IMG/VR virus record: IMGVR_UViG_3300011416_000016
Span: 1-46,844 of that record
DNA length: 46,844 nucleotides
Direction: 5' to 3' (one strand)
DNA from: a virus
Lineage: Duplodnaviria > Caudoviricetes
Made by a program: the position numbers and the translations under genes. Shown here piece by piece: positions 25,101-46,844 of the stretch; the stretch's first letter is position 1; every line of letters starts with the position of its first letter. Below the pieces are notes generated by a model. It was given only the letters and a program-made list of their open reading frames with translations. It was not told the origin of the DNA and did no database searches.

Positions 25101-27999
25101 GTTGAAGCACGGCGACGTCACGACTGACGGAGCGATGGAGGAGGCCTCACGAGCTGCGGTCCACGAATCAGGCGCTCGCTTGAAGCAGCTCCAAGTGGAG
25201 CTGGACGCCCTGAACCGCAAGGCCGGTCACCGAGTCATTAAGCTCTCGAAGGCGATGCTCTCCGGCTACGCCGACCAGCAGATCGCCAAGGCGACGGTCC
25301 GGTCCGTCGATCCGAACCGCTACCTTCAGTCCGAACGCAAGGCAGCGACCGAGGCGATCAAGGCTGCGGAGAAGGGCAAGTACGACGAGGCCGTCGACTG
25401 GCAGAAGAAGCGGATGATCAACCGCTTCCTCTACAGCGCGGCGGTCGACGCCAAGAAGTCGGCCGATAAGGCGGTGAGCTACATCAAGAAGCAGGACACG
25501 GCGACGAATCGAGGAAAACTTGGCAAGCTCGACACGATCGACCCGGTCACGCAGGAGGTCGTTCATTCTTATCTCGACCAGCAGGACAAGCTCCTCGAAC
25601 GATTCGAGTTCAAGCGAATCTCGGGGAAAGAGTCCCGCGCCCGACAGTCCCTCGCAAAGTGGGTCGAGTCAGAGAGTGCCGCAGGTCGAGATCCCATCAT
25701 CGCGCCGAGGCTGATCGACGAGACCCTCATGACGAACTGGCAGGACATGGCAGTCGATGAGCTTCTCTCGCTCGCCGATGCCGTCCACACAATCAATCAC
25801 CAGGCCGACAGAAAGAACAGGCTGATCGTGTCTGGCAAGGAAGTGATGTTCGATGCCTTCGTCGAGGAGGGCGTCGCCCAGATCCAGCTCAACGGCTCGC
25901 GCAACGGCCCGACACAGGTCAGTGAGAACAACACGACCTGGGCCGAGCGTGCGATCTACGACACGCTTAGGCGCGCCGACTCCGAGCTTGTGCGCCTTCG
26001 TGAGATAGCAAACGAGCTGGACGGTGACGACCCGAACGGCCTGTTCCACCGCATCCTCGTACACCCGTTCGATGACGCGGCCACAGCCGAGCACGAGATG
26101 CAGGTCAGGGTCACCAAGATCATCGATGAAGCGATCCGCGCGTTGCCGAAGAGTCAGCGTGAGCGCCTGTCGAGCCGAGAGACCGTGATGATCCCGAGCA
26201 TCAAGCAGACCGTGCTGTTCTCGGACCTGATCGCGTTCGGTCTCAACATGGGCAACCTGTCGAACCGCTACAAGATGCTGGCCGGGTGGAGTACGTCGCG
26301 CCAGGGCAACATCCCTTGGACTGAAGTCACGATGAGCGAGATGCGCGCTCAGCTCACAGAGGCAGACTGGGACTTCATCCAGAACGTGTGGGATGCGCTC
26401 GAATCCATGTGGCCCGAAGCCTCGGCTCTGGAGAAGAAGCTCACTGGGCTTGCCCCGAAGAAGATTGACCCAGAGCCGTTTACGTTCACGCGACCGGATG
26501 GGACGAGGAAGGATTACAGGGGCGGTTACTACCCGGTGATCTACGACCCGCGCTACAGCGGGCGCAACCTAACGAGCGCCGCGGGCCAGGGGGCTGGGCT
26601 CTACAGCCAGGGGGCCGACCGAGCCGTCACTCCTCACGGACACCTCATCGATCGCATCGAGACGTACGCTCGTCCGATCTCGCTGCAGCTGGAGCGTGTT
26701 CTCGGGAACGTGTCGAGCGTGATCCACGATACGACTCACCGCGAGGCGTTGCTCGAAGCGTGGCGCTTCCTCACCGACCAGCGCATCGCAGACGCGATGG
26801 TGCGTCACGTTGGAGAGGAATACTACCGGATGACCCTGGAGCGGATGCGTCGCATCGCGAACAGTCGAAACCAGCAGTCGAGCTTCATCCAGGGGGTCCA
26901 TCGCGTTCAGGGTGCCGTCAGCGCCTCGATGATGGGCTTCAAGATGTCGGTGGCCCTTCAGAACTTCGCCAACGTGATCCTTGCGAAGCAGGCCGTCGGG
27001 ACAGTCGCCTTCGGAAAGGCAGTGGTCAGATTCGCAACGTCTCCGTTCGATACGATCAATCAGCTCAGCGAGATCTCGGGTGTGTTCCGTCACCGCATGC
27101 AGCAGCGCGACAACGAGCTGCGCCAGGTGTTTGAAGAGAAGATCTCCCTGACGGCGTCGCGCCGGAAAACCATCACGAACAAGGTCATCCGGGTCGGCTA
27201 CCTGATGCAGTCGTTTACGAACATCATCACGGAGGCTCCGGCCTTCCTTGCAGCGTATCAGAACGCTCAGGCCAAGGGCATGACGGATGCCGAGGCCGTG
27301 CGGTCGGCAGAGGACATGCTGCTCTCGACGTTCGGAGGCGGAAGCGTCAAGGATCTCGCTCTCGTTCAGGACACCGAGGCGATGCGCCCGTTCACGATGT
27401 TCTACGGATTCTTCAGCGCGGTCTACAACATGACGCGGCGCACCAGCCGACAGGTGAAGGGCGAGTGGAGATCTGGGAAGCGCGGAGCCGCCACGGCTCA
27501 CGCTCTTGAATACCTGATCTGGAACATCGTCGTGATGAACGTGCTCTCAGAGCTTCTCTCTGGAAGGCCACCGGACGACGACGACCTGGAGAGCCCCGAG
27601 GGTATCGCCGAGTGGGTTGCGATGCGCGGCCTCGCCTACCCGTTCGGGATGGTGCCGTTCGTGCGCGACATCTATCGCGCGATCGACCAGGGAAAGCGTG
27701 ACGTGTCTCTGACCCCACTGTCGAGCGCGATGACAGAGTTCGCTCGCATCGGCCAGGAGGTAGCCAAGGCTGGCATCGATCTGATCGAGTCGGACGAGCT
27801 GGACGAGGATCAGCTTCTCGACGCTGGTTCGACGATTGGGCTTCAAGCCGCGAAGACGGCCGCGATATTCTCCGGGCTGCCGGTGTCGCAGGCTAAGATC
27901 ACGGGGGGCTTCCTGTGGGACTACCTCGTGAACGAAGAGGCACCTGAGAACTGGGCCGAGGGGCTGCACGACCTGCTCTACACCAAGAAAAAGAAGTGA
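19183..27999 (+). CDS. Giant polyvalent ejection protein (gp16 position) with ADP-ribosyltransferase-like, HhH glycosylase-like and zincin domains
   Basis: 2938 aa. FRSWF..S...G.PLVLYHGT...MKNPL...GYDGIV...YIVF..SQMKSA; WYE..AATSP..GPKVRSF..NDR..QLQAMGW; STFLHETGH; YRGGYYPVIYD. Confidence 0.85.
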   Translation: MGEIDYGQFVDEEIDEAAAGAGPDPIADAVEADIADAQNELWANAKIAVQTPPDKFASLWKTGRALGLDPMTIRAAEEHAKNVENFNTMGLTDLARNNPRLTEWLSKRDNIALSHDDVSSGALQKIGDAWMGGVDQVKLSERSIALMGAGMDPTTDDAIIELKRKIESSAKTIDESVRPLKSVLKGVQVLPGMGTALGIGLGTGAAAGATAVGSGAYPLVPFAVGGGVALGSGVGTARQETGAAYVQYVEEMKARGGPVDLRRAKLAAEAVGAINGLIEVVGFGAMLTFLPGLKFLVGGEKVVLQQSLRKLVGDAVLGYGKQLVSESVQEGVQQVVTDVGQNVALNDPTEFGVEIESFTGTAVESLEAFMLAGAVGSGVSLHQQLRNRAAGEANKSIFERNGKIVADAKLSARSPEKIGEIADLAVEGGHPSTVYLGTEEFNTLFQDKLPPTEAADQIGIGKEYRTAMQEGSDIAIPFKTYASRIANSKYHPQIAGDLKFDPDDMTARQQEEFDANMKDMKKVVAEIRDGGDKHVDTPAYDLRKRQLLDTGRVSERDADFYAQLHSWFVDTMGERTGEDVLAQFPLVVTATDQAQTDLSQDTRAAIETPEFRSWFQGSQITSGDGAPLVLYHGTRAQFDTAAIDTEHGDLGLHLTADPKVAGLVVSADLPLLNSRVYDNEAPARTVPLFVNMKNPLRLQDNGFWGANNIIPQLEKRGMIGKDAWTEWLMKYRQERGEADAYDYKEEQRLALQGLIKSLGYDGIVYLNRHEISSAEGQPIQAYDLTQKFATDDRFLRQHPEARDSYIVFDQSQMKSAIANRGAFDPNDPSVLNQAAIREQAEVLGRTIREIRANIGDAPLVAGAHRDGKPMLMVDGKEFLEANLDEAGDGWTESEAELQSAVTGAFKSAVSETGRGREVVDSLSMKMEPKPAEFWARALTLPNRARYWYEISAEYFRHVLPDLSSEELSRFIDVVAATSPQADPNLNIARAVSVFAESMAHVPVATDIISPVTVGAALSGAGLEGPKVRSFSGTMQYVLGLSKERPLSTNDRQVAATFGLNADTIGSNPVLYEVLSRFYINLRDSLNAKLPKGAEPYQTWQLQAMGWVQERYESERRAGAGRATSSDDYQQALGKVLQRLSKAGVKIDNGSIPTDVLMGDEIPNILSRSREEFLESPIATIEVQTLLTESGPAIKEAVERARTIGDLNSLGEFDSITKRAFSGLGKRGGGESAASLAEKIASVVKGDKVRISRVVNGYGTYQGNVGANIRLPMSALSEAELETFLSVIGDAWKQGAMAASSFRSVPNNDPSAKPWPGFIRTYQIFLENRVSLSNGEIASFSEALGGNELNVNPNVANGITVDINPAFGEDGPVGPDPQIVVEAAEKVFGAHSFETFPKNYKSTYIELADYPAKRQADVEAARAKTVDAIIGKSGLDANLLARYLDTSAPAASLKFLNRAASEGARAGRRRSGSVTASEQARAEKLKQSYVSRLATLESLKAEAAKILSDYERTLVSTWKPKADKRFERSQRGLKLVQKANKKADASYIADPSPTAPVSDRWTADRGAAPGEAMMELDGGVAAIVEIDAEGAIQGVQAYTSEGDPIAPMRDSATEAAADAEAWADSQTELEQPVRGSIRLMSGGRPYIINIGPDADLSTFLHETGHMFIDVMGRLSSKEGSNPQVKEDYETALKWMGYESHEDRVASLKEMRDPALDQARRSELKAKEEKWARGFEAFLMEGRAPAAGMIRAFTRFARWLSSIYKKIESLGGAIPQDIKDVMSRMIATDEQIAQVEEHDRYIPMFANAAEAGMTEEKFKAYQNLAEEAHWEAYRNMDLKIRAEQEREGKAWWKEERAATIEQVTKDIDAKPSVQASQFLRDGSLPPELESNRDVLSINGAPLKVSTIELDKTYETMSRAIKRKLGPNATRAVGGVHPDSIAQIFGFKSGDEMIRKLISEAPRSRQIVAETNRRMALKHGDVTTDGAMEEASRAAVHESGARLKQLQVELDALNRKAGHRVIKLSKAMLSGYADQQIAKATVRSVDPNRYLQSERKAATEAIKAAEKGKYDEAVDWQKKRMINRFLYSAAVDAKKSADKAVSYIKKQDTATNRGKLGKLDTIDPVTQEVVHSYLDQQDKLLERFEFKRISGKESRARQSLAKWVESESAAGRDPIIAPRLIDETLMTNWQDMAVDELLSLADAVHTINHQADRKNRLIVSGKEVMFDAFVEEGVAQIQLNGSRNGPTQVSENNTTWAERAIYDTLRRADSELVRLREIANELDGDDPNGLFHRILVHPFDDAATAEHEMQVRVTKIIDEAIRALPKSQRERLSSRETVMIPSIKQTVLFSDLIAFGLNMGNLSNRYKMLAGWSTSRQGNIPWTEVTMSEMRAQLTEADWDFIQNVWDALESMWPEASALEKKLTGLAPKKIDPEPFTFTRPDGTRKDYRGGYYPVIYDPRYSGRNLTSAAGQGAGLYSQGADRAVTPHGHLIDRIETYARPISLQLERVLGNVSSVIHDTTHREALLEAWRFLTDQRIADAMVRHVGEEYYRMTLERMRRIANSRNQQSSFIQGVHRVQGAVSASMMGFKMSVALQNFANVILAKQAVGTVAFGKAVVRFATSPFDTINQLSEISGVFRHRMQQRDNELRQVFEEKISLTASRRKTITNKVIRVGYLMQSFTNIITEAPAFLAAYQNAQAKGMTDAEAVRSAEDMLLSTFGGGSVKDLALVQDTEAMRPFTMFYGFFSAVYNMTRRTSRQVKGEWRSGKRGAATAHALEYLIWNIVVMNVLSELLSGRPPDDDDLESPEGIAEWVAMRGLAYPFGMVPFVRDIYRAIDQGKRDVSLTPLSSAMTEFARIGQEVAKAGIDLIESDELDEDQLLDAGSTIGLQAAKTAAIFSGLPVSQAKITGGFLWDYLVNEEAPENWAEGLHDLLYTKKKK

Positions 28000-33400: not shown

Positions 33401-33853
33401 AATACGAGTGGCCTCGTAGGAATATCTGCCACGGGCGCCGTTGGTTCGCGCATTTTGATCTCGGGTGGCGGTGGGTCTCCGGACGTCGAGATCGGTGGGT
33501 CCGGTTTCCTTAAGGCAACGCGGTTCAACAAGGTAACGATCACGGAACCGGCGTCTCAAGCGACTCTCACTATCGCTGACAACAAGACGCTTACGGTCAA
33601 TGACAATGCGACGTTACAGGGCGCTGGGACTTACTACCCTATCGCGATTGACGCGATCTGGGCCGCTAAGGGTGACTTGCTTGGTGGAATAGCGAACGAC
33701 GCCGCCGCGATCTTGCCGGTGGGCGCGAACACCTTCGTCCTCACGGCCGACTCTGCGGAAGCGACAGGGATGAAATGGGCTGCTGCCGCAGGTGGCAGTG
33801 GCCTTACACTACCGCAGGTCATGGCGACCGGCGTGTTCGGAGGGCCGTTCTAA
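30485..33853 (+). CDS. Large tail fibre / receptor-binding protein (LamG/ConA-like domain, beta-roll repeats)
   Basis: LFWYKAED...WTDSSGNG...EVIGF; N-x-x-IG-x-x-A repeats; duplicated GDL..LPVGA.TFVL.ADS.EATG.KW module. Confidence 0.8.
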   Translation: MSKRTRDSRSEDQWLQVQIDALKRRVAQLNVIAGGFPGGNGADPTAQVILTAVNGTLTTWMRSDAAPPLSQAIAPTMTGTWNFTPSANVCPITINGTNLTSAHMEVWNPDSGYDTIVNRSGDVWIGDEAGTAMLSIRARSATISDFGPLFWYKAEDYPGGTRPQTWTDSSGNGYDMVSHNWNSLEGEDNAGRTDGPRKNSVGALTTTPPDPVAGSALTPTNLPSVDSNWYFNYPTPGNERENYFQLSSGDFPDFGSAHGGFTLFYIIHDYGGTNVGSHSFPVIGSSTVANDSIWAGDDGTTPNKNAKPFTIEGASGKDFCTALSIAEGLTEVWGVRIAATSGALRATYNGTLQTSASHTRTNSFTTVNRLLSGANHGGAKGNSLVEVIGFAYEMSDADMTIINDLLLAEVAGTAVGSTQDLTHWKDSAGTLDSFVDASINWGIGLAAASAAAKVHIRRATAPQLRIDRDASDYVTISVAATGDVTFDAFGASPSFTFADPVNFGSTVSFQSATFGVPVSVDLAANSAGVATTISRSDHKHDLDESIAPVWTGIHRHSNYVEYDEMAAPGTPAANRVRLYAKDDTGVSSLFFKKDDGTEINLGAGSGDITTDPAWTALGDLIVGTGVSTASILPVGADTFVLSADSGEATGLKWVALAGGGDALVANPLSQFAATTSAQLAGVITDETGFGGTGVLVFNNNPTLVSLSLPTTTSATTGIIFKNSIRWAHDFTNAAKTAGQAQNIFIGDNAGNFTIAGTGLQGVGNVGIGDSALIALTTGSQNFAFGWDALTALTSGRYNVALGVGAGQSLTTTDSSVFIGAAAGANATGSRVVAIGDSAGGNHGAGDDSIFIGQGADSSVGTEANAIAIGAGTIVDADNKTVIGNLNTTLTEVRGNFNIRDQVSGDIATINVELGGSQTLYVPQNTGYIWVDNSVTLLSNQDPLLDWNPVTAGGGGIRLWAGGASAANAVVAVNTSGLVGISATGAVGSRILISGGGGSPDVEIGGSGFLKATRFNKVTITEPASQATLTIADNKTLTVNDNATLQGAGTYYPIAIDAIWAAKGDLLGGIANDAAAILPVGANTFVLTADSAEATGMKWAAAAGGSGLTLPQVMATGVFGGPF

Positions 33854-33854
33854 A

Positions 33855-35195
33855 ATGAATCTCACAGGCGTAAGCGATCTCGTCCGCGTCATCACCACGG
33901 GGACTGCGGACGTCGAAGTGCAAGCGTCGTGGGTCGATCAGACGACAACGGCATTCACTCCCGGCCGCACGAATACGATCATCACGTCCGCGACGACGAC
34001 GACCGTCGTCGGCAGTCCAGCCGCTTCGACTCAGCGCGCGGTCACGTCTCTGAAGATCCGAAACGACCACGCCTCAACGGCTAACACGGTAACGATCCTC
34101 CACACGGATGGCACGACCTCGGTAGACATCTGGAAGGGCACGCTTCAAGCCGGGGAGTCGGTTGAGTACGACGGCAAGACGTTCAAGCGTTTCACGTCGG
34201 GAGGTTTCGAGCAGAACGTCGCCGCGGCTGGACCCGCTGACGTGCAAACGTCCACGACGCCAGGGGCCGGAGTGTGGACGAAGCCGACTTCGTTTACGCC
34301 ATCGTTCGTTGAGGTTGTCACCTTCGGCGGCGGTGGCGGGGGTGGGGCAGGAGCGTCCCTCGCAACGGCGGTTGTTGCAAAGGGTGGTGCTGGCGGTGGC
34401 GGGGGCGCGTTCAACAGTCGCGTCTACCGCGCGAGCGATCTCGCAGCGACGGAGAACTTTAACGTAGGGGCTGCGGGAACCGCTGGCGCTCCCGGCGCGG
34501 CTGGCGCGGCTGGCGGCTCGGGAGGCATCGGCGGCAACACGACATTCGGAACGACGGTTCGCCTCTCGGCCTTCGGTGGTGGTGGCGGCATGGGCGGGCA
34601 GATCACCGCGCTTGCCAGCGGCGGCGGCGGGGGCGGCGGAAAAGGAAGCGCGGGAGGAACCGGCACGTCGTTATCCGGAGCAGGCGGGCTCCCGCTCGCG
34701 AGCAACGTCACCGGCTCAGTCGGCGGGCAGGGGAGCGGCGGCACGATCACCGTCGTAACGACCCACAACGCCGAAGAGGGCGGCGGCGGCGGGGGCGGGT
34801 CTACGGCCACGCCAACGTCCTCGGTGGGCGGCGGCTCGATCCGTGGGGGCGGTGGTGGCGGAACCGGGGGACATCACACCGCAGCCCCGGCCGTAGTGGC
34901 CCCGGCAGCGGGAGGCGCGTCGAACACCTACGCAGCAGGGACCGGAGGCGCAGCCGGAACAAGCGGCGCGGCACCTACCGCAGGGTCGGCCGGTGCGAGC
35001 GGATCGTCTGTCATCGGTGGTGCCGGGGGCGGCGGGGGCGGGTCAACCGTCAACGCGGCAACAGCAGGTGCAGTCGGTGGCGCTGGCGGTTCTCACGGCG
35101 GCGGCGGCGGTGGCGGTGGCGTCGGCCAGAACCCAGGGCTCGGCGGCGCTGGCGGACTCGGCGGCGTTGGGGCAATTTACATCTTCACTTGGTAG
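33855..35195 (+). CDS. Glycine-rich fibre-tip/adhesin protein
   Basis: GVWTKP...VEVVTFGGGGGGG followed by many GGGGG repeats, ending GAIYIFTW. Confidence 0.8.
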   Translation: MNLTGVSDLVRVITTGTADVEVQASWVDQTTTAFTPGRTNTIITSATTTTVVGSPAASTQRAVTSLKIRNDHASTANTVTILHTDGTTSVDIWKGTLQAGESVEYDGKTFKRFTSGGFEQNVAAAGPADVQTSTTPGAGVWTKPTSFTPSFVEVVTFGGGGGGGAGASLATAVVAKGGAGGGGGAFNSRVYRASDLAATENFNVGAAGTAGAPGAAGAAGGSGGIGGNTTFGTTVRLSAFGGGGGMGGQITALASGGGGGGGKGSAGGTGTSLSGAGGLPLASNVTGSVGGQGSGGTITVVTTHNAEEGGGGGGGSTATPTSSVGGGSIRGGGGGGTGGHHTAAPAVVAPAAGGASNTYAAGTGGAAGTSGAAPTAGSAGASGSSVIGGAGGGGGGSTVNAATAGAVGGAGGSHGGGGGGGGVGQNPGLGGAGGLGGVGAIYIFTW

Positions 35196-35475: not shown

Positions 35476-35787
35476 ATGTCAAAAGGAAGAAGACACATTA
35501 CGGCACCACCGCAGCAGAGAGTCCAGCAGCCCCAGGTCGATCCATTCGCAGGAAAGTCGTATCGAGTCAGGAGGATCTACGTCAAGCTCGACGTTGACAT
35601 CTACGACGATTCCGGGCGCTACAAGGAAACCGTGCTCACCGATCCTCCGGTGATGATCGCTGAGTCAGAGTTCCCAGACGGATTCGAGAAGCTGGTCTGC
35701 TCGAAAGCCGATCTGCCCAGAGGCTTCAGCGGAACGAAGAAGCCTAACAAGCCGGTAGCGGTAGAGAACGAGAAGGCGGCAGGGTGA
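35476..35787 (+). CDS. Hypothetical protein
   Basis: GGAGG RBS; MSKGRRHITAPP... Confidence 0.65.
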   Translation: MSKGRRHITAPPQQRVQQPQVDPFAGKSYRVRRIYVKLDVDIYDDSGRYKETVLTDPPVMIAESEFPDGFEKLVCSKADLPRGFSGTKKPNKPVAVENEKAAG

Positions 35788-36161
35788 TGCTCGCCGCTCT
35801 CCTGCTGATGGCATCCTGCGTTCCGGACGCCCTCTACTCGCCGACTCCAGTCTTGGCGCACGACCAAGTCCTCGACGCCGACCTGGCGGGTTATGCGCTC
35901 TATTACAGGGTGCCGGGTGGCGTCTTCCAAAAGCTGGTCGACTGGCCGTGCGTGTGGTGGGACTCCGACGATGACGGCACCGATGACGTCCGGTCGTGTC
36001 GAGCCGCAGATCAGGGGGCTCCTCTCCAACGATACTGTCCGTCGTGCGAGCAGATGAACGAGTACGAGTTCGCACTGAAGGCCTTTGACGACAGCGGAAA
36101 CTACTCGAGCGAGTTTTCAAACGCAGTGTCGGTGTGCATGCCGCCCTGCGTGGAGTTCTAA
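35784..36161 (+). CDS. Exported fibronectin type III-like protein (possible lipoprotein)
   Basis: Hydrophobic N-terminus ending LMASC; DLAGYALYY...YEFALKAFDDSGNYSSEFSNAVSV. Confidence 0.7.
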   Translation: MMLAALLLMASCVPDALYSPTPVLAHDQVLDADLAGYALYYRVPGGVFQKLVDWPCVWWDSDDDGTDDVRSCRAADQGAPLQRYCPSCEQMNEYEFALKAFDDSGNYSSEFSNAVSVCMPPCVEF

Positions 36162-36637
36162 TGACCTACGAGCAGCTCGCCCCAGGTATCGACACGGAGC
36201 GCCTGCTCCGCGCGATCAAGCGCATCGAGACCACAGACGGCGGTAACAACTGGCCGCGCGTCGAGGTGAGCTACATCCCGAAGGGGCTCGCGTTCACGGT
36301 CCAGGGTCGCACGCTCGTCGGTACTGGTTACAACGTGAACGAGGTGGTCATCCCGCGCTGGAAGAAGTGGGGCCTCGGCTCGGCCGCGAGCTGGGGCCCT
36401 TGGCAGATCCTCTACCACACGGCAGCAGACCAGGGATACCTGATGGCACCGCACGAGCTGTTCGACGAGGGAACGTGCGAGCCGTACGTCATCATGCGCC
36501 TCCGCAGGATCGCCAAGGGCGGGGCGCTGACAGTCCGAGACTTCGCCGATGCGTGGAACAGCGGGAGCTGGCGCGACGCCAACCTCGTGAAGCCCTACAC
36601 CGACGCAGTCGAAGCTGCGTACGCGGAGCTGGTGTGA
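36161..36637 (+). CDS. Endolysin, lysozyme/lytic transglycosylase fold
   Basis: AIKRIET (catalytic Glu), SWGPWQILYHTA, AWNSG, Y...V. Confidence 0.85.
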   Translation: MTYEQLAPGIDTERLLRAIKRIETTDGGNNWPRVEVSYIPKGLAFTVQGRTLVGTGYNVNEVVIPRWKKWGLGSAASWGPWQILYHTAADQGYLMAPHELFDEGTCEPYVIMRLRRIAKGGALTVRDFADAWNSGSWRDANLVKPYTDAVEAAYAELV

Positions 36638-36873
36638 ACCCAGACCTCTTGACCCTTGTCGTCGTAGTCTTCGGAGGGATCGCAGTCGCTGCGACCAGGG
36701 CGAACGTCCTGATGTACCGGCAGATCGGAGAGCTTAGGATCGAAGTGGCGCACCTCGCGAACGCGATCTCGAAGATGACCGACTCGGCGAGGGACGAACG
36801 CGCCGCGTACCGGGAGGATCACGAGGTCATCCATCGCAGGATCGACAACATCATCCGAATCAACGGGGGTTAA
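36634..36873 (+). CDS. Single-TM coiled-coil membrane protein (holin/antiholin-like)
   Basis: LLTLVVVVFGGIAV followed by a coiled coil ending IHRRIDN. Confidence 0.65.
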   Translation: MNPDLLTLVVVVFGGIAVAATRANVLMYRQIGELRIEVAHLANAISKMTDSARDERAAYREDHEVIHRRIDNIIRINGG

Positions 36874-36874
36874 T

Positions 36875-37213
36875 GTGATCGGACATACCCTGGCCTACCT
36901 GTTCGGGGCACTCATCGGAGAGGTGATGCTCTGGGGCTGGTGGCTCAACTCGCAGATGCCTGGAGCGTCGCTGAGGCACTACGCCGAAAAGAAGAAAGGG
37001 CAGATCGTTCTCTCGGCGTGCGTGTCCGCCCTACTCTCACTGATCTGGGCTGAGGGCGGCCTGATCAACGCAGTGCACGAGTGGATCGGAGGCGGCGTGG
37101 AGTTCTCGCTCGGACTGTCGCTCGTCGTTGGCGGTGCCATCGCTTTCTTCGCTCACGGCATCGTCTCGAAGTTCAGCAAACACGCGGGCGTCGACACGCC
37201 TAAGGGAGATTGA
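36875..37213 (+). CDS. Putative holin (3 TM)
   Basis: Three hydrophobic segments and a charged C-terminus; near the endolysin. Confidence 0.65.
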   Translation: MIGHTLAYLFGALIGEVMLWGWWLNSQMPGASLRHYAEKKKGQIVLSACVSALLSLIWAEGGLINAVHEWIGGGVEFSLGLSLVVGGAIAFFAHGIVSKFSKHAGVDTPKGD

Positions 37214-37216
37214 CGC

Positions 37217-37411
37217 ATGACTATCGTGACGCTCGTCCTCTGGCTCCTCGCGCTTGGAGTCGCTGGTTGGCTCATCAACTCTTACATCCCACTGCAGGAC
37301 GGGATCAAGCGCATCCTGAACATCGTGCTCGTTGTGATCGCGATCCTGATCGTGCTATACGCCTTCGGGATTCTCCCGATGGGAAACAAGCTCGTACCTC
37401 AACTTCGATAG
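37217..37411 (+). CDS. Small 2-TM membrane protein (Thivi_2564-like)
   Basis: GVAGWLINSYIPL...IKRILNIVLVVIAILIVL.AFGIL. Confidence 0.75.
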   Translation: MTIVTLVLWLLALGVAGWLINSYIPLQDGIKRILNIVLVVIAILIVLYAFGILPMGNKLVPQLR

Positions 37412-37419
37412 GGGGCGGC

Positions 37420-37797
37420 ATGAACAGCGTCGAGCAGTTCGTGGTCAGGAGGGGCAAGGCCATCGGGATCATCGTGGCGCTTGCCGTGTTCGCGTTCGTC
37501 GCGATCTCGTGCGTTCCGAGGGCGTGCGCCGAGGAGATGAAGGGTCAGTTCTTCATCCCAATCTCCGCTCGCTACATCGAGGACTGGGGCGTGGCTGGTG
37601 GCGTGGCGTACCAGGAGGAGAAGACGAAGATGATCTTCTCGCTCCAGGTGAGCTACGACCAGTTCAACGGTCAGGGCGGGTCTGTTCCGTATCAGGTCAA
37701 CCCGTGCCGAGTGGTTCAGGTTCCGTGGTCTACGCCAGACTACGGTCATCGCGGGATCGAGTTCACGCTCTTGATCCCGGTGGGCAAAAAGAAGTGA
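37420..37797 (+). CDS. Exported protein with four amphipathic beta strands (outer-membrane-like)
   Basis: Signal-like N-terminus ending ACA; alternating hydrophobic strands ending GIEFTLLIPV. Confidence 0.6.
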   Translation: MNSVEQFVVRRGKAIGIIVALAVFAFVAISCVPRACAEEMKGQFFIPISARYIEDWGVAGGVAYQEEKTKMIFSLQVSYDQFNGQGGSVPYQVNPCRVVQVPWSTPDYGHRGIEFTLLIPVGKKK

Positions 37798-37943
37798 CCG
37801 AGGTTCCGTGCAGCCAGTGGCAGGAACTGGCCGAGGCCGTCGTCTACGTCTACAAGAACGGCGGGCTTGAAGGCATCGTGGCGGTTCTCCTCGGGATCGC
37901 GTTCTGGCGGAAGCCTTGGTTCCGTGATCAGGCGAAACCATGA
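37794..37943 (+). CDS. Small single-TM protein
   Basis: GTGA and ATGA overlaps; GIVAVLLGIAFW. Confidence 0.55.
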   Translation: MTEVPCSQWQELAEAVVYVYKNGGLEGIVAVLLGIAFWRKPWFRDQAKP

Positions 37944-38746
37944 AGCCGGAGACGCGCTGGAAGATCGCCTGCTTCCTGATGCTCGCCGTCTGCGTGTCGC
38001 TCGCGTTCGGATTCCTTTCGGCGTACATGCACTCGCGTGAAAGCGACAAGGCGCTCGACGCCTACATCGATGCCGATGCCAAGCGCAAGGGATTCGGTAA
38101 GGGCGAGTTCGAGGAGCCGAAGATTCCCGACGCCCCGGTGGGGTCGAAGAAGATCTTCACTATCGAGGGAGGGGTGACGTATGCTCCTAAGAAAGGGGCG
38201 AGTAGACCGGACCCGACGACCCCTATAGCGAGTGCGAAGCTCACTCCTGAAGTCGGAACTGCTCGCCCCGACCCTGCCCCAGCTGGAATCCCCACCAAAA
38301 CAGCGGACATGGCTCCAGTTCTGACCGGCCAGTGCTCGCTCGACGAGGTAGGGCTCGACGTGAAGTGCAAGGCTGACGGCATCGCGGCTCCAGGGGCCCC
38401 GTACGGACGCCTGACGATGAGCGGGAAGCTCTACGGGTTCGGGCAGGCCCGAGACCTCCCAGAGATGACTGCGGGCGACGTGAAGCTCAGCGTGGCGAAG
38501 TGGCTGGACCCGGCGACCTGGCACATGCAGGTGATGGGCGGCGTTGCCGCCGGGGAGCGTCTAGGCCTTGAGTTCGGCCTGTCCGGTAGGGGACGATCCC
38601 GCTTCGGCTGGTACTCTTTGGTGGAATATCAGCCCGCCGTGTCGGGTGACCAGGCATACAGCTCGTCAACGGAGACCTACTCCACGGTGGGGGCTGAGCC
38701 CTCGACCTGGCGGGTACACGCAGGAATGACGATCTCGGTCCGTTAG
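37940..38746 (+). CDS. N-terminally anchored protein with Pro-rich linker and C-terminal beta strands (spanin candidate)
   Basis: TM IACFLMLAVCVSLAFGFLSAYM; C-terminal strands ending WRVHAGMTISVR. Confidence 0.65.
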   Translation: MKPETRWKIACFLMLAVCVSLAFGFLSAYMHSRESDKALDAYIDADAKRKGFGKGEFEEPKIPDAPVGSKKIFTIEGGVTYAPKKGASRPDPTTPIASAKLTPEVGTARPDPAPAGIPTKTADMAPVLTGQCSLDEVGLDVKCKADGIAAPGAPYGRLTMSGKLYGFGQARDLPEMTAGDVKLSVAKWLDPATWHMQVMGGVAAGERLGLEFGLSGRGRSRFGWYSLVEYQPAVSGDQAYSSSTETYSTVGAEPSTWRVHAGMTISVR

Positions 38747-41733: not shown

Positions 41734-42762
41734 TTACGCGGTCTCGATGATCGAAAGCAGGTAGCGCCACGCGCGGTCCTTGATCTCGTCGCCTTGACCG
41801 AAGACTGCGCTCTTGAACCGGCTGTCGTTGTCTGAGTCGCGGAGGTGGTCGATGAAGTAGGTCGTGGCTTCCCAGAGGCCGCGCGCCGTACCGGGGCGAG
41901 CGCCTGGGGCGTTACCGTAGGCCTCCTGAAGAGCCTCGAAGCCGCGAACCTCACGGTCGACCCCCTCGTTGAACTTGATGCCATCGAACGCGGCAACCGA
42001 GTACACGCCGCTCGGAACCAGGCTAGGGCGAATCAATGCGCGGAAAAAGCTGGCGGCCAACCTGTCAGTCACCTTGATGCCGTTGAGCTGGCGGATCACG
42101 TTGACCTGTCCGTGGAAGACGCTCGCAGCTGCGTCGAGATCGAAGCCTAGCCCCTCGGCCGCGCGCTCGTTCGAGAACGCCGAGCGGTGCGACTGGCGAG
42201 CCTTTGACTTGTCGACCGAATCGGATTCGAGCGCAGCCTTCCAGGTGTTAGCGCACACCACGCGCACCGCCGTGGGGATCGCGATCGTGACCATCGACCC
42301 GTCGCACGCGGTCGCGAGCAGTGCGTACAGGCTGGCGATGTCTTGACCGGAGCCGTTGAGATCGGCATCGACCTCGGTGCGTCCCAGCGCCCAGTACCGC
42401 TCTCCACGCCCGAGCACGCCAGCGGTCTCGATGTCGAGGTTGAACTGTTTGCCGTAGCTCAGGAAGAAGTCGAGGATCTCTTTCGGCTGGTGGAATTTGT
42501 ACCGCTCGCCGACGACGCCGATGGCCGCCCCGGTGTCCGAGCGCGTGACAACCTGCTTGCCTTCGACGGAGACGAAGCTACCGGCGGGGTCGACGTAACC
42601 GGCCTTGCGGCCGATCAAGGAGAAGTTGAATCCGCACTTCTCGCTGATCTGCTCCGGCGTGTCCTCGGGGTTGATGACGTTGCAGTCGCTGTGCCAGGGA
42701 GTCTGGCCGCGATACGCCATGCTCGCGATGCCGTTTTCCCTGATGTGGATGTCTGCGCTCAT
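41734..42762 (-). CDS. DUF932/DUF945 family phage-plasmid protein
   Basis: MAYRGQTPWH...RSDTGA.IGVVG.RY...ETAG.LG.G...LLAT..DGS...T.VRVVC.NT...GTA.GLW.A.T...DH. Confidence 0.9.
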   Translation of the reverse strand: MSADIHIRENGIASMAYRGQTPWHSDCNVINPEDTPEQISEKCGFNFSLIGRKAGYVDPAGSFVSVEGKQVVTRSDTGAAIGVVGERYKFHQPKEILDFFLSYGKQFNLDIETAGVLGRGERYWALGRTEVDADLNGSGQDIASLYALLATACDGSMVTIAIPTAVRVVCANTWKAALESDSVDKSKARQSHRSAFSNERAAEGLGFDLDAAASVFHGQVNVIRQLNGIKVTDRLAASFFRALIRPSLVPSGVYSVAAFDGIKFNEGVDREVRGFEALQEAYGNAPGARPGTARGLWEATTYFIDHLRDSDNDSRFKSAVFGQGDEIKDRAWRYLLSIIETA

Positions 42763-42800
42763 TGGGGCCTCCGTTTGGTGCGCTGCATTGCGCGATGTGG

Positions 42801-42829
42801 AATATAGGCGATTGACAACAGAAGCGCAA
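42801..42829 (-). promoter_or_regulatory. Leftward early promoter
   Basis: Minus strand TTGCGC-17 nt-TATATT. Confidence 0.7.
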
Positions 42830-42889
42830 GAAAAAAGATGAGCTGCAAGTCGCTGGCAGCACAGGGCTTGCAAACCATGCTCTTTTCTC

Positions 42890-42917
42890 TTGCGCCACCG
42901 GCTACGAGGTGTATCTT
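42890..42917 (+). promoter_or_regulatory. Rightward early promoter
   Basis: TTGCGC-16 nt-TATCTT upstream of GGAGG and ATG 42935. Confidence 0.6.
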
Positions 42918-42934
42918 TCCGTGCGGAGGTTCCC

Positions 42935-43012
42935 ATGAAGACCATCATCGACCCAGGCCGAGCCACCCGCGCCATCGGCTCTGCGCGAAGTAGGAATGCG
43001 GTGATCGCGTGA
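42935..43012 (+). CDS. 25-aa leader ORF (MKTIIDPGRATRAIGSARSRNAVIA)
   Basis: Strong GGAGG RBS; stop overlaps the HNH start (GTGA). Confidence 0.5.
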   Translation: MKTIIDPGRATRAIGSARSRNAVIA

Positions 43013-43482
43013 GCGAATCAGACTTCTGGAAGTCCCGATCGGTAGATCCATTGACCGGGTGCTGGCTCTGGACCAGGGCAATAAATCCGCGAACTGGATA
43101 CGGCCAGGTGTTCTATCGCGGTGCCTTCATCAGCCCCCATCGACTGGCCTATCGCCTAGCCTGCGGAGAGATCGCCACGGCGCTCGTTGTCCACCATCGA
43201 TGCCGCGTCCGGCGTTGCTTCAACCCCGAGCACCTAGAAGCGCGGACCAGCCGCGAGAACGTTCTCATGGGGTCGGGTCCGTCCGCGCAGAACGCCAGGA
43301 AGCTGACCTGTCTGAAAGGTCATCCCCTCAGTGGCGACAACCTATGGGCGCGTCCGTCCGGCGTGAGGGAGTGCTTGATCTGCAAGAGGGCTAGGGCCGG
43401 AGCGCACCGCGAGAAATACAGGCAACGGATCAATGCGTGGTTCCGAAACTACGTCAGGCCAAAGAAAGCGAGGACAGCGTGA
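43009..43482 (+). CDS. HNH homing endonuclease
   Basis: GCWLW...GYG...HRLAY...VHHRC..R.CFNPEHLE..T..EN; C.KGH...REC..C. Confidence 0.92.
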   Translation: MSESDFWKSRSVDPLTGCWLWTRAINPRTGYGQVFYRGAFISPHRLAYRLACGEIATALVVHHRCRVRRCFNPEHLEARTSRENVLMGSGPSAQNARKLTCLKGHPLSGDNLWARPSGVRECLICKRARAGAHREKYRQRINAWFRNYVRPKKARTA

Positions 43483-43745
43483 GCATCGTACGCAACGGCA
43501 AGGCTACTAGGTCGGAGTCCATCGTGCCGCCACTGGAGTGCGGTGATGTTTCTAGGTACCAGGCCGTCAACCCAGACGTGTGGGAAGACGAGCCGTCGCG
43601 CCCGGTGCCGTGGAAGCACGTCGCCGTGTTCGCCGGAATTGTCACGCTCGCGTGCATCGGGCTGTTCGCGCCGCCACAGGCTCAGTTCGTAGTGTCTACC
43701 GTGATCGTGTTTGTGGGGGCGGCGGCGTTGCTGAAGTTGCTGTGA
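43479..43745 (+). CDS. 2-TM membrane protein
   Basis: Two C-terminal hydrophobic segments. Confidence 0.65.
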   Translation: MSIVRNGKATRSESIVPPLECGDVSRYQAVNPDVWEDEPSRPVPWKHVAVFAGIVTLACIGLFAPPQAQFVVSTVIVFVGAAALLKLL

Positions 43746-44029
43746 AGAGGTCCACGAAGCTCATCGTGCAGCGCGGCCTTGAGCGCATCGGAGAGGCGAG
43801 AGCCGAGGAGCGCCGTCGTCGCATGGATCGTCACGAGCAGGTCGTGAGACTAGAGGCCATCGTGAGGGCCGCTGACGCGCTCTTCGAGGCTTACCCCTTA
43901 GATCCTGGGTGCTTCGAGGGGTGTACCTGCCTCGACTGTGACTCACGGAATGACTACGCCAGAGCGCGCTCCAAGTACCGTCTCACTCCACAGGAGGCCC
44001 AGAGTGAATCGCATAATCCGAAATCTTAG
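43742..44029 (+). CDS. Hypothetical protein
   Basis: GTGA overlap; C...CTCLDC cluster. Confidence 0.6.
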   Translation: MKRSTKLIVQRGLERIGEARAEERRRRMDRHEQVVRLEAIVRAADALFEAYPLDPGCFEGCTCLDCDSRNDYARARSKYRLTPQEAQSESHNPKS

Positions 44030-44840
44030 TTACGACGACTACGTCAAGATCCCGGCGCTGCGCTACAGCGACGCGAAGGGATTCGTCAGATCTGCGCTGC
44101 ATGCGCGACACGACATGACACACCCGCGCGATCACACGTCATCGACCCTCACGGGAGTTGCCCTGCACACGGCCGTTCTTGAGCCGGAGAAGTTCTCAGC
44201 CCTCTACGCCGTAGCTCCCAAGCTCGACAAGCGCACGACGAAGGGCAAGGAGGCCTGGGACGAGGTCAAGGCGAAGAGCCCCAGCCTTCTGATCCTGCGT
44301 GACTCCGAGTATGAGAACGTCAGGGGCATGGCGGCAGCGATCAAGGCGCACCCGTTCATCCAGGCCGCGCTCGAAGTGCCGAAGTTTTCGCGCGAGCTGA
44401 CACTCGTGTGGGACGAGACCGTCGACGGCGTCGCGACTCCGTGCAAGTGCCGCATCGACTGGATCGTCACGCTCGACGGTGTCACCTACGTCATCGACCT
44501 CAAGTCGACCCAGGACGCGAGCGTCTACGAGTTCGGCAGATCGATCCACAAGTTCAAGTATCACGGACAGTCGGCGAGCTACTTGCGCGGGCTCCAGGCC
44601 GTGGCTCCCATCACCGCGCTTCGCCGCTGGGTGTGGGTCGCGGTCGAAAACACCGCGCCGCATGGCGTCGCCCTGTACGAGCCGAGCGAGGGCCTTCTAA
44701 CTCAGGGCCTCAACGAGTATCTGAGCGCCGTTCGGCAGTACGCTGATGCGGTGCGAACCAATAGCTGGCCGGGTTACCCGGCGATGATCACGCCGATCGA
44801 TCTCCCTCGGTGGGCGTGGAAAGACGAGGAGGTTGCGTAG
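44004..44840 (+). CDS. RecE/exonuclease VIII-like PD-(D/E)XK exonuclease (DUF3799 type)
   Basis: G.ALHTAVLEPEKF, CKCRIDW, IDLKST, YHGQSASY, WPGY. Confidence 0.9.
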   Translation: MNRIIRNLSYDDYVKIPALRYSDAKGFVRSALHARHDMTHPRDHTSSTLTGVALHTAVLEPEKFSALYAVAPKLDKRTTKGKEAWDEVKAKSPSLLILRDSEYENVRGMAAAIKAHPFIQAALEVPKFSRELTLVWDETVDGVATPCKCRIDWIVTLDGVTYVIDLKSTQDASVYEFGRSIHKFKYHGQSASYLRGLQAVAPITALRRWVWVAVENTAPHGVALYEPSEGLLTQGLNEYLSAVRQYADAVRTNSWPGYPAMITPIDLPRWAWKDEEVA

Positions 44841-45595
44841 TGACACAGGCAATGGAGAAGAGACAGATCGACATCGGCGAGCGCGGGCTCTCGCTCCGAA
44901 ACTTCGACGACATGTTCCGCTTCTGCGACGTGTTCGTGAAGAGCGGACTCGCGCCTGATGGCGACACGCAGGCCAAGGTGATGATCAAGCTGCAGGCCGG
45001 TCTGGAGCTTGGCTTCCAGCCGATGCAGGCGCTGCAGACGCTCATCGTCACGGACAAGGGCAGGCTCTCGATGATGGCGGTCGGCATGCTCGCGCTGATC
45101 CGCCGCTCACCGCTCTGCGACTGGGCCGACGTGACTGTCAAGGGCATCGGCGACGAGCGCGTGGCCGTGTTTTCCTTCCAACGGCGCGGCACGCCGGAGC
45201 GTTCGGTCACGTTCTCAGTGGACGACGCGAAGACGGCGCGCCTGTGGAACAAGAAGACGCAAAAAGGCCACGACACTACGTGGGTCACGTCGCCCGAGGA
45301 CATGTTGATCGCTCGCGCGATCTCCCGCGGAGCGAAGCGGTACTGGTCGGACGTTCTGCTCGGTGTCGAGGCACAAGAAGTGATGCAGGACGTGGATGGA
45401 TTTTCTCCGACTCCAGCGACCGGCCCGGTGCGCGGAGCAACGACGGTGAGCCAGCCGTCTGTCCTGACCGGACCAGTCGGTAATGATCCGATCTTCGACG
45501 CCGTCGAGGCGACGGCTCCTGACGGTCCGATCGACATCCCGATGGACCCAGAGCCCGAGCCTAAGGTCGACGAGAACGGAGAAGTAATCGAATGA
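44840..45595 (+). CDS. recT: RecT-like single-strand annealing protein
   Basis: SGLAP...GLELGFQPMQALQ...FSVDDAK.A.L...W...P.DML.ARA; follows the RecE-like gene. Confidence 0.8.
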   Translation: MTQAMEKRQIDIGERGLSLRNFDDMFRFCDVFVKSGLAPDGDTQAKVMIKLQAGLELGFQPMQALQTLIVTDKGRLSMMAVGMLALIRRSPLCDWADVTVKGIGDERVAVFSFQRRGTPERSVTFSVDDAKTARLWNKKTQKGHDTTWVTSPEDMLIARAISRGAKRYWSDVLLGVEAQEVMQDVDGFSPTPATGPVRGATTVSQPSVLTGPVGNDPIFDAVEATAPDGPIDIPMDPEPEPKVDENGEVIE

Positions 45596-45978
45596 GCGCC
45601 AGGGTCGCGGTCGTTGGGACTCGCAGCCCGAGCCACGAGCTGATGAAGCTGGTGGAGGACTACGTCTACAGCCTCGACCGTGAGGACATCGTCGTAAGCG
45701 GGGCGTGTCGCGGCGTCGATGCCTTCGCCGCGAAGATAGCGATCCGCCGCGGCATGAGGGTCAAGGAGTTCCCGGCCATAGAGACGGAGCAGGTTAGCTA
45801 CACAGACGCCTGCAGGGCGCGTAATGTTGAGATCGCCAAGTATTGCGATCGCATGATCGCGTTCCCAGGCCCCACGTCCAAGGGCACATGGGATGTCGCT
45901 CGCAAAGCCAGGTCGCGCAACAAGCCTGTGCTTGTCGTGACTCCGGAGACGACGTATCAGTACGAGGTGCTGCCGTGA
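45592..45978 (+). CDS. SLOG-superfamily protein (YspA/DUF2493/DprA-like)
   Basis: VAVVGTRS, VVSGACRGVD..A, RN..I...D..IAF....SKGT...A....KPV. Confidence 0.85.
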   Translation: MSARVAVVGTRSPSHELMKLVEDYVYSLDREDIVVSGACRGVDAFAAKIAIRRGMRVKEFPAIETEQVSYTDACRARNVEIAKYCDRMIAFPGPTSKGTWDVARKARSRNKPVLVVTPETTYQYEVLP

Positions 45979-46334
45979 GCGAACACGAGGACGGAATTGA
46001 CCCAGAGGCCAAGGCCGCGTTCGATCGCATCTTCGGAGAGGAATCCAAGCGCGTTGCTAAGCATGCAGCGATCAGCCTTGATCCGAAGGACGTCGAGGCC
46101 ACCAAGAAGCTGACGGAGAACCCGAAGGGCCCAGCCCAACTTCGGGTCGGAATGAAAGACGGCCAAGTCGTGATGGACTTCGGTAGGGCCATGTCCTGGC
46201 TCGCGGTGACGCCAGACGTTGCACGCGCCATAGCAAGCAAGCTCGTTGAGTGGGCCACCAGGGCCGATGCGTCCGCGCTCAAGATCGAAATGTCACCAGT
46301 GCTTCCGTTCAAACCAAAAGGAGAACGGCAATGA
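45975..46334 (+). CDS. Hypothetical protein
   Basis: G.VVMDFGRAMSWL..TP..AR.IA..L pattern; overlaps both neighbours. Confidence 0.65.
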   Translation: MSEHEDGIDPEAKAAFDRIFGEESKRVAKHAAISLDPKDVEATKKLTENPKGPAQLRVGMKDGQVVMDFGRAMSWLAVTPDVARAIASKLVEWATRADASALKIEMSPVLPFKPKGERQ

Positions 46335-46714
46335 ACAGAACCTTCCTCGCCTTCGCGATCCTCGTCCTCCTCTCCGTAGCGACCAAGGCTGCGGCTGCTC
46401 CGAGAAGCGTGCTCGTCCACACCGAAGAGTTCGCGGCAAGCGCCGTCTGGCTCGAAGACGAGCCCGGTCGGGACGGAGCTGAGCCTGAGCTGCTCGATTC
46501 AAGCGGAGGATGCGATTGGCTCGGAGACACGACATGCAACGCGAGGTGCTCAAGCAGGACGACGGGATCGGCGATCCTCGTCTCCGTCTCGTGCCAGCCC
46601 ACGGACAACCCGACGCAGTATCGCTGTGGCTGCACCTGGGTTCTGCCAGGGCCCTACGTCCCTCCGTGCTACTGGAACTGCGGCGGCTCTCGCAATGCGT
46701 TTTCACCGTACTAG
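46331..46714 (+). CDS. Secreted Cys-rich prepropeptide, defensin-like
   Basis: Signal peptide MNRTFLAFAILVLLSVATKAAA, acidic spacer, then C-x7-C-x3-C-x14-C-x10-C-x-C plus CxxxC. Confidence 0.65.
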   Translation: MNRTFLAFAILVLLSVATKAAAAPRSVLVHTEEFAASAVWLEDEPGRDGAEPELLDSSGGCDWLGDTTCNARCSSRTTGSAILVSVSCQPTDNPTQYRCGCTWVLPGPYVPPCYWNCGGSRNAFSPY

Positions 46715-46728
46715 CCGGAGGGGAAGCC

Positions 46729-46844
46729 ATGACCCACCACGGGCCGGAGCGGAGGGTGCGGCAGACGCCGCGATGCTGTGGGAGCGCCGATGGCACGAAG
46801 AGCTGCTACCTACGCTACGACGCGCGAGAGCACTCTGAGGACCA
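46729..46844 (+). CDS. Small ORF continuing across the window junction to position 49
   Basis: GGAGG RBS; reads ...AREHSED|HGHRVRVWVEDLGDAP* with its stop at 47-49. Confidence 0.65.
   Translation, partial: MTHHGPERRVRQTPRCCGSADGTKSCYLRYDAREHSED

Follow-up and report, generated by a model that had tools for sequence, protein, structure and literature searches.

Cis-defensins have been described from eukaryotes and, recently, from bacteria (PMC11561630). The regular expression of Cardoso et al. 2024 for bacterial defensins of classes I-V is CX(2,18)CX3CX(2,12)CX(4,17)CXC, and all of the peptides in that paper carry a GxC gamma-core (PMC11561630). Its class IV, from myxobacteria and one Acidobacteria, has a signal peptide, the cysteine order C..CxxxC..C..CxC and a long acidic, hydrophobic N-terminal segment of 21-53 aa. 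Lipid II-binding GXGCP defensins carry an aromatic GXG (Gly-aromatic-Gly) before the first cysteine and a His in the helix (PMC12284004), and the GA/GG leader of actifensin goes together with ABC transporters (PMC6989792). The CS-alpha-beta scaffold can also be a receptor ligand, as in SP11, the defensin-like peptide of the SRK-SP11 complex 5GYY (PMC7530648), and it can be without antimicrobial activity, as in xanthusin-1 (PMC11561630). Phage-borne bacteriocin clusters are known (10.1101/2020.10.01.322628). We found no report of a phage-borne defensin among the literature matches listed, which were searched by titles and the beginnings of abstracts and leave most subscription papers outside.

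The protein described here, P0001, is a predicted exported, Cys-rich mini-protein encoded near the end of a window of 46,844 bases, by which we mean the whole stretch of DNA that was analysed; it is an entire virus record, with a completeness rating of 100%. P0001 resembles the class IV bacterial cis-defensins in having a signal peptide, the order C..CxxxC..C..CxC and a long acidic, hydrophobic N-terminal segment, about 37 aa in length. Unlike the peptides of PMC11561630, in whose main text the word 'phage' has 0 occurrences, P0001 is found in a phage, and its family of nine members has neither the GxC gamma-core at the fourth cysteine (0/9) nor a fit to the regular expression (unmet in 9/9, with a C3-C4 gap of 13-18 residues, 14 in P0001, vs a limit of 12). 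The family also adds a conserved tail of 20-30 aa with a fourth Cys pair, which sets it apart from class IV as that class is described. Judged by its sequences, the P0001 family is not a standard defensin; P0001 likely founds an undescribed family, found in a phage, that joins a likely defensin-type core to an unusual conserved tail. Our main reading, to which we give a probability of about 0.4, is that P0001 may be an exported disulfide scaffold with a predicted CS-alpha-beta core, whose tail would bind a protein of the host envelope, most plausibly to exclude superinfection or to control the envelope.

The P0001 gene sits in a phage recombination-replication operon

The window contains a podophage virion module recognized with Pfam and PHROGs (terminase, portal, GP7-type capsid, Bbp16/Bbp19-like proteins, T7-like internal virion proteins and tail fibres), and the closest isolated phages by capsid, at 41-43% protein identity, are BcepC6B- and phiV10-type phages of Proteobacteria. 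A Pfam and PHROGs scan of 46 window ORFs revealed no integrase. The P0001 gene lies near the end of a rightward run consisting of HNH, RecE-like, RecT-like, SLOG, unknown ORF and P0001; the genes in the upstream block 43938..46334 (+) overlap at their junctions and have the same orientation as P0001. The features at this end of the window are:

43938-44840, + strand: RecE-like exonuclease, upstream context of P0001 (Pfam/PHROGs)
44840-45595, + strand: RecT-like protein, upstream context of P0001 (Pfam/PHROGs)
45592-45978, + strand: SLOG/DprA-like small protein, straight after RecT and two genes upstream of P0001 (Pfam/PHROGs)
45975-46334, + strand: unknown ORF immediately upstream of P0001
46319..46323, + strand: Shine-Dalgarno-like AGGAG, 7 nt before the ATG (sequence)
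46331..46714, + strand: CDS of P0001, a 127-aa predicted-exported Cys-rich mini-protein (translation, 8 homologs, codon score)

The P0001 ORF is a real gene. A first-pass annotation of this DNA had placed an ORF with a signal peptide, an acidic segment and a cysteine-rich part at 46331-46714 (+), and translation to 127 aa together with the gene signals confirms it. The start codon overlaps the stop of the upstream ORF in an ATGA at 46331-46334. The synonymous-codon score of the P0001 frame is 0.195, near those of the SLOG (0.237) and RecT (0.281) genes, while four other frames score between -0.02 and -0.01 and one antisense frame scores 0.163. The gene recurs with no differing letters in contigs of run X3, over its whole length, and in contigs of run X2, over 46331-46642; the window itself may stem from run X1. 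Across 42500-46844 no sigma-70 promoter-like site was found, and terminator-like sites were no more frequent than at chance level.

Contigs of run X1 show the genome running on beyond the window end through a variable stretch and then back to position 1, which is preceded there by 954 more bases; about 0.9 kb or more of the genome is missing from the window. Because the genome re-enters at position 1 past the window end, the P0001 gene likely lies upstream of the replication genes found at the start of the window. In runs X1-X3 the contigs branch near the gene that begins at 46729; a short stretch at the start of that gene appears repeated, and X1 contains two alternative continuations after 46844, at depths of 9.3 and 4.5. 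Probably both window ends fall within a variable cassette. Loose contig ends at 46727 were rejected as proof of a P0001-less phage variant, since a short repeat where the next gene begins accounts for them equally well.

Three further features were observed elsewhere in the window:

19183-27999, + strand: polyvalent protein of 2,938 aa in the virion region, carrying LPD22 and an ART-PolyVal ADP-ribosyltransferase domain (Pfam/PHROGs scan), probably ejected into the host
33792-35195, + strand: 467-aa protein, very Gly/Ala-rich, with a weak tail-fibre-assembly match
35784-38746, + strand: putative lysis/envelope cluster with no Pfam or PHROGs match, comprising an ORF for an exported protein that contains Cys (35784-36161), a gene at about 36161-36637 that by eye may encode a muralytic enzyme, some small membrane proteins, and a 268-aa protein anchored in the membrane whose C-terminus is beta-rich

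A family with a variable cysteine core and a conserved tail

A phmmer search with P0001 against 1.84 billion representatives (E <= 0.001) returned nine proteins, namely P0001 and eight relatives at 34-55% identity. The eight relatives all derive from assemblies of metagenomes or runs (ENA, Logan, JGI); seven are singletons and the eighth belongs to a cluster of two, and they are named 'hypothetical protein' at most, none being matched to a family. The nine members share ancestry, so counts over them are not independent. The layout of P0001 is:

46331..46399, + strand: predicted Sec signal peptide, residues 1 to about 23, with a basic n-region, hydrophobic core and Ala run (hydropathy)
46400..46504, + strand: acidic spacer, residues 24-58, little conserved, ending in a (P/Y)-x(1-2)-(L/M)-(D/Y)-(S/A/G) motif (net charge -7; identity)
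46511..46633, + strand: six-Cys core C61-C101, predicted to be CS-alpha-beta-like, with helix 63-76 and strands 82-90 and 96-104 (Cys in 9/9; AlphaFold; weak structure matches)
46634..46681, + strand: conserved Pro/aromatic tail, residues 102-117, with invariant G107, P108, Y109, P111, Y114 and W115 plus C113/C117 (family alignment)
46682..46711, + strand: Gly-rich variable end, residues 118-127, with a terminal aromatic (Tyr/Phe end in 9/9 members)

The N-terminus of P0001 is hydrophobic, with an 11-residue hydropathy peak of 3.06, and a hydropathy profile, used in place of a dedicated predictor, is compatible with a signal peptide and no further transmembrane segment. Hydropathy thus supports the signal-peptide-like N-terminus of the first-pass annotation, and its acidic segment is borne out by residues 24-58, with a net charge of -7. 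G59-G60 come next, and the cysteines stand at 61, 69, 73, 88, 99, 101, 113 and 117. A signal-peptide-like segment was seen by eye in every relative, and each has an acidic spacer with an (L/M)(D/Y)(S/A/G) motif 6-8 residues before C1. The GG dipeptide, earlier proposed as a processing site, precedes C1 in only 1/9 members (P0001 itself) and was rejected as a cleavage site; the segment just upstream of C1 is a conserved motif, modelled as a low-confidence strand (residues 53-56, pLDDT about 51). A RiPP (modified-peptide) precursor was also rejected, with no modifying enzyme among the 46 ORFs scanned. In the homologs P0012 and P0014/P0016 the hydrophobic stretch is preceded by an additional N-terminal segment, in which they share an H-(A/T)-G-P-D motif; this segment is either an extended signal anchor or a miscalled start.

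The earlier proposal of a defensin had been tied to cysteine spacing conserved among homologs, and the framework C-x7-C-x3-C-x13-18-C-x9-11-C-x-C is present in 9/9 members (gaps of 7, 3, 13-18, 9-11 and 1). The six frames of the window contain one match to a relaxed CS-alpha-beta Cys pattern, vs a shuffled mean of 0.097, and the pattern arises in 0.2-0.9% of shuffles of P0001 itself; this rarity alone is modest evidence, and a stronger test is the retention of six cysteines in 9/9 members. When each member was left out of the profile in turn and scored with its cysteines masked, members reached 26-70 bits vs 11-29 for their own best of about 100 Cys-preserving shuffles, winning in 9/9 cases, and for eight of the nine the masked score exceeded the highest shuffle among all members or came within a few bits of it. 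Since Cys-masked members beat their shuffles, the family is more than a Cys pattern; the members had first been picked by similarity to P0001, and the test measures coherence rather than independent discovery.

The first-pass annotation had treated CYWNC as an extra, but the C-terminal segment is the most conserved part of the family. G-P-Y-x-P..Y-W is invariant in all nine members, and of the seven non-Cys residues that are invariant, six belong to the tail (those listed above). Non-Cys pairwise identity is 0.60 at residues 102-117 vs 0.20 in the core; outside these two parts, pairwise identity is 0.16 at residues 24-52 and 0.31 at 53-60. C7 and C8 (C113 and C117) are both kept in seven members and both lost in two, never occurring singly, and because they are kept or lost together (in two loss cases only) the sequences suggest that they form a disulfide of their own. 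The C-terminal residue is Tyr (8) or Phe (1) in every member, though 4-14 residues follow YW; the background for such ends is 14/344 long-ORF ends in the DNA examined, and the family members are related rather than nine independent draws. Because the tail is poorly modelled (pLDDT 45-69), its residues may form a binding epitope, or may pack against the core in some way missed by the model. PPxY-like letters in the tail were rejected as a WW-domain ligand, which we take the PPxY motif to be, because they are missing in 3/9 members and there is no eukaryotic context.

Occurrence of the family

P0001 had no match in Pfam or PHROGs at E <= 0.01, only weak matches in NCBIfam, none meaningful among PDB sequences and none usable in the ESM Atlas. 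A word-indexed protein search returned P0001 itself only, two profile searches recovered 4 and 6 of the known members without adding any, and viral scans with P0001, P0010 and P0016 as queries gave no match. The tail pattern, carried by 6/9 members, had 2 viral, 7 metagenome and 4 genome matches, all chance except the window's own record, and a Cys-plus-GPY pattern had 14 viral matches, none of them real (0/14). No match was found by tblastn against 50,697 phage records and against plasmids, and a RecT-based scan gave no relative. Among capsid-related virus loci, the gene is carried by 0/50 whole records (of 58), most of which are fragments, and by 0/9 of the records at least 90% complete. One 24.5-kb virus record (L015) has a capsid 100% identical to that of the window and no family match, in a record that is only 56% complete.

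Phage-borne status is established for P0001 only, and the family may be mostly cellular. P0001 could then be a host-type secreted Cys-rich mini-protein carried as an accessory passenger, with a role as a bacterial surface or signalling ligand and no phage-specific job. The counts for the capsid-related records and the 50,697 phage records would fit this, as would the position of the gene, which adjoins the variable region at the window end. We nevertheless consider it rather unlikely: the tail pattern has no true member in 185,579 prokaryote genomes (4/4 matches by chance), an NCBI source is listed for none of the eight homolog clusters (0/8), the codon usage of P0001 fits the phage's own genes and its gene is coupled to the upstream neighbour.

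The predicted fold of the core

AlphaFold modelled residues 58-127 from the single sequence as a helix plus hairpin (pLDDT 54), and with a 10-row alignment residues 60-99 were modelled at pLDDT 75-77. The elements are a helix at 63-76 (C69, C73), strands at 82-90 (C88) and 96-104 (C99, C101), and the low-confidence strand at 53-56. Both models place CxxxC on the helix and CxC on the final strand of an antiparallel sheet, and from this placement of the cysteines a CS-alpha-beta arrangement is predicted. The helix and beta-hairpin expected by the first-pass annotation are therefore present in the AlphaFold model, with cysteines where a CS-alpha-beta fold needs them. Overall we regard the core of P0001 as likely CS-alpha-beta-like.

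In the Foldseek check suggested earlier, chains of 5GYY, the complex that contains the defensin-like SP11, rank 3 and 4 with weak E-values of 0.93 and 1.6; no match was obtained at E <= 0.001, and none at all for the single-sequence model. BFVD gave no significant structure match, and VIA over 48,161 chains gave no Z >= 5, the top row (Z 4.6) being an unrelated enzyme domain. Among the top 50 VIA chains, tied with unrelated folds, are SP11 5gyy_H (Z 3.6, rmsd 2.6, 50/54 residues), SP11 6kyw_D (Z 3.4, rmsd 2.4, 44/46 residues) and termicin (Z 3.0, rmsd 2.1, 36/36), which we take to have the CS-alpha-beta fold and whose model range, 11-57, is exactly the Cys core. One of the nine members matched PF25052 AtDEF-like (Pfam) with E 0.071 and 13.8 bits, below the cut-off of 25; the PF25052 profile matches no PDB sequence.

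The best defensin-fold structural matches to the P0001 model are thus to Brassica SP11/SCR (5GYY, 6KYW; PMC7530648). SP11/SCR is secreted, is highly variable in its core apart from the cysteines and acts by protein binding, and these are the traits on which we compare it with the P0001 family. Unlike P0001, this plant peptide is basic and has four core disulfides, and a match this weak (Z 3.4-3.6, 14-24% identity) shows neither homology nor shared function.

The core might instead be a convergent small beta-alpha-beta-beta domain with other disulfides or metal, and not a cis-defensin fold. ACT-like or other small alpha/beta domains occupy the top VIA rows and the Atlas structure rows, the published regular expression fails in 9/9 members, the loops are longer than those of typical defensins, and P0001 has a weak metallothionein match (E 0.045), probably from composition. 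This we find improbable given the position of CxxxC and CxC in both models and the three defensin-fold chains that align over nearly their whole length; the even Cys counts, the co-loss of C7 and C8 and the signal peptide favour disulfides over metal.

What P0001 may do

The first-pass annotation had seen a defensin signature in P0001, noted that several such defensins bind lipid II, and proposed superinfection exclusion, receptor or cell-wall-precursor binding, or competition between bacteria. The cysteine order is kept in 9/9 members and the fold is predicted; the published regular expression and the gamma-core are each found in 0/9 members. The family shares its six-Cys order and predicted helix-hairpin with the lipid II-binding plectasin and actifensin (PMC12284004); unlike these it has longer loops and lacks the aromatic GXG before C1 (0/9), the His before C3 in the helix (0/9) and cationic charge, its cores being neutral to acidic (+1 to -4 across members). 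It also lacks the features of a double-glycine-leader bacteriocin, with GG before C1 in 1/9 and no ABC transporter among the 46 window ORFs scanned, where the actifensin leader goes with one.

A true antibacterial defensin, with its pro-piece cut at GG and a lipid II-binding peptide directed against competitors or other phages, would account for the layout of signal, acidic spacer and six cysteines, which is that of defensin precursors, and for the predicted CS-alpha-beta-like fold; moreover, active anionic defensins such as AfusinC exist, and the gamma-core is dispensable for defensin activity (PMC5116183). The absent lipid II-binding features, the core charge and the missing transporter speak against such a peptide, and conservation lies in the tail and not in the core. 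We hold this reading to be very improbable, and a lipid II-type antibacterial action is not supported; superinfection exclusion or receptor binding, also proposed in the first-pass annotation, may still apply.

We would give as little chance to the idea that phages own a cis-defensin-fold family whose core is only the stable carrier for a conserved, disulfide-looped aromatic tail; the tail would imitate the C-terminal signal of outer-membrane proteins, jamming BamA or a related envelope machine and excluding phages or harming neighbours, or, in a variant drawn from general background, triggering a periplasmic PDZ protease. Such a tail would be L-type-bacteriocin-like on a tiny disulfide scaffold: in L-type pyocins (LlpA; PMC13463100), a folded domain carries a flexible, unstructured C-terminal peptide that binds BamA strand 1 at the place of the beta-signal's conserved C-terminal aromatic, and by analogy only the family has a terminal aromatic in 9/9 members despite varying tail length and a tail that is flexible in the model, but the pyocins consist of lectin domains of about 256 aa, related to it neither in sequence nor in fold, the last residues are Gly/Pro-rich with no clear alternating beta pattern, and two members have only 4-6 residues after YW.

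We return to the main reading of an exported scaffold with an envelope-binding tail. From the observed gene, family and conservation pattern, and from the predicted fold, we infer the following course. P0001, whose gene signals are those described above, would be expressed and translated with the recombination-replication operon, and its signal peptide would direct it into the periplasm of the host, probably a Gram-negative one, and there the disulfides would form. In the predicted topology C1-C4, C2-C5 and C3-C6, a pairing expected from the fold type, would lock the helix to the hairpin, and C7-C8, judging by their co-loss, would close a small loop in the tail. The variable core would serve as a stable scaffold, and the conserved elements, the invariant GPYxP..YW and the free C-terminal aromatic, would contact a conserved envelope partner. 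The conserved aromatic tail and the lack of positive charge suggest that P0001 likely binds an envelope protein, in contrast to classic defensins, which kill bacteria. The most likely benefit would be a block of a receptor or entry factor against superinfection, or a damping of envelope stress during infection.

Implications

If the fold is confirmed, the cis-defensin superfamily would extend to viruses of bacteria. The P0001 form, with its long loops and no gamma-core, escapes the usual search pattern, and similar families may therefore have gone unnoticed. Its inverted conservation, with a variable core, a fixed aromatic tail and a fixed C-terminal aromatic, points to one small epitope in a domain of about 70 aa.
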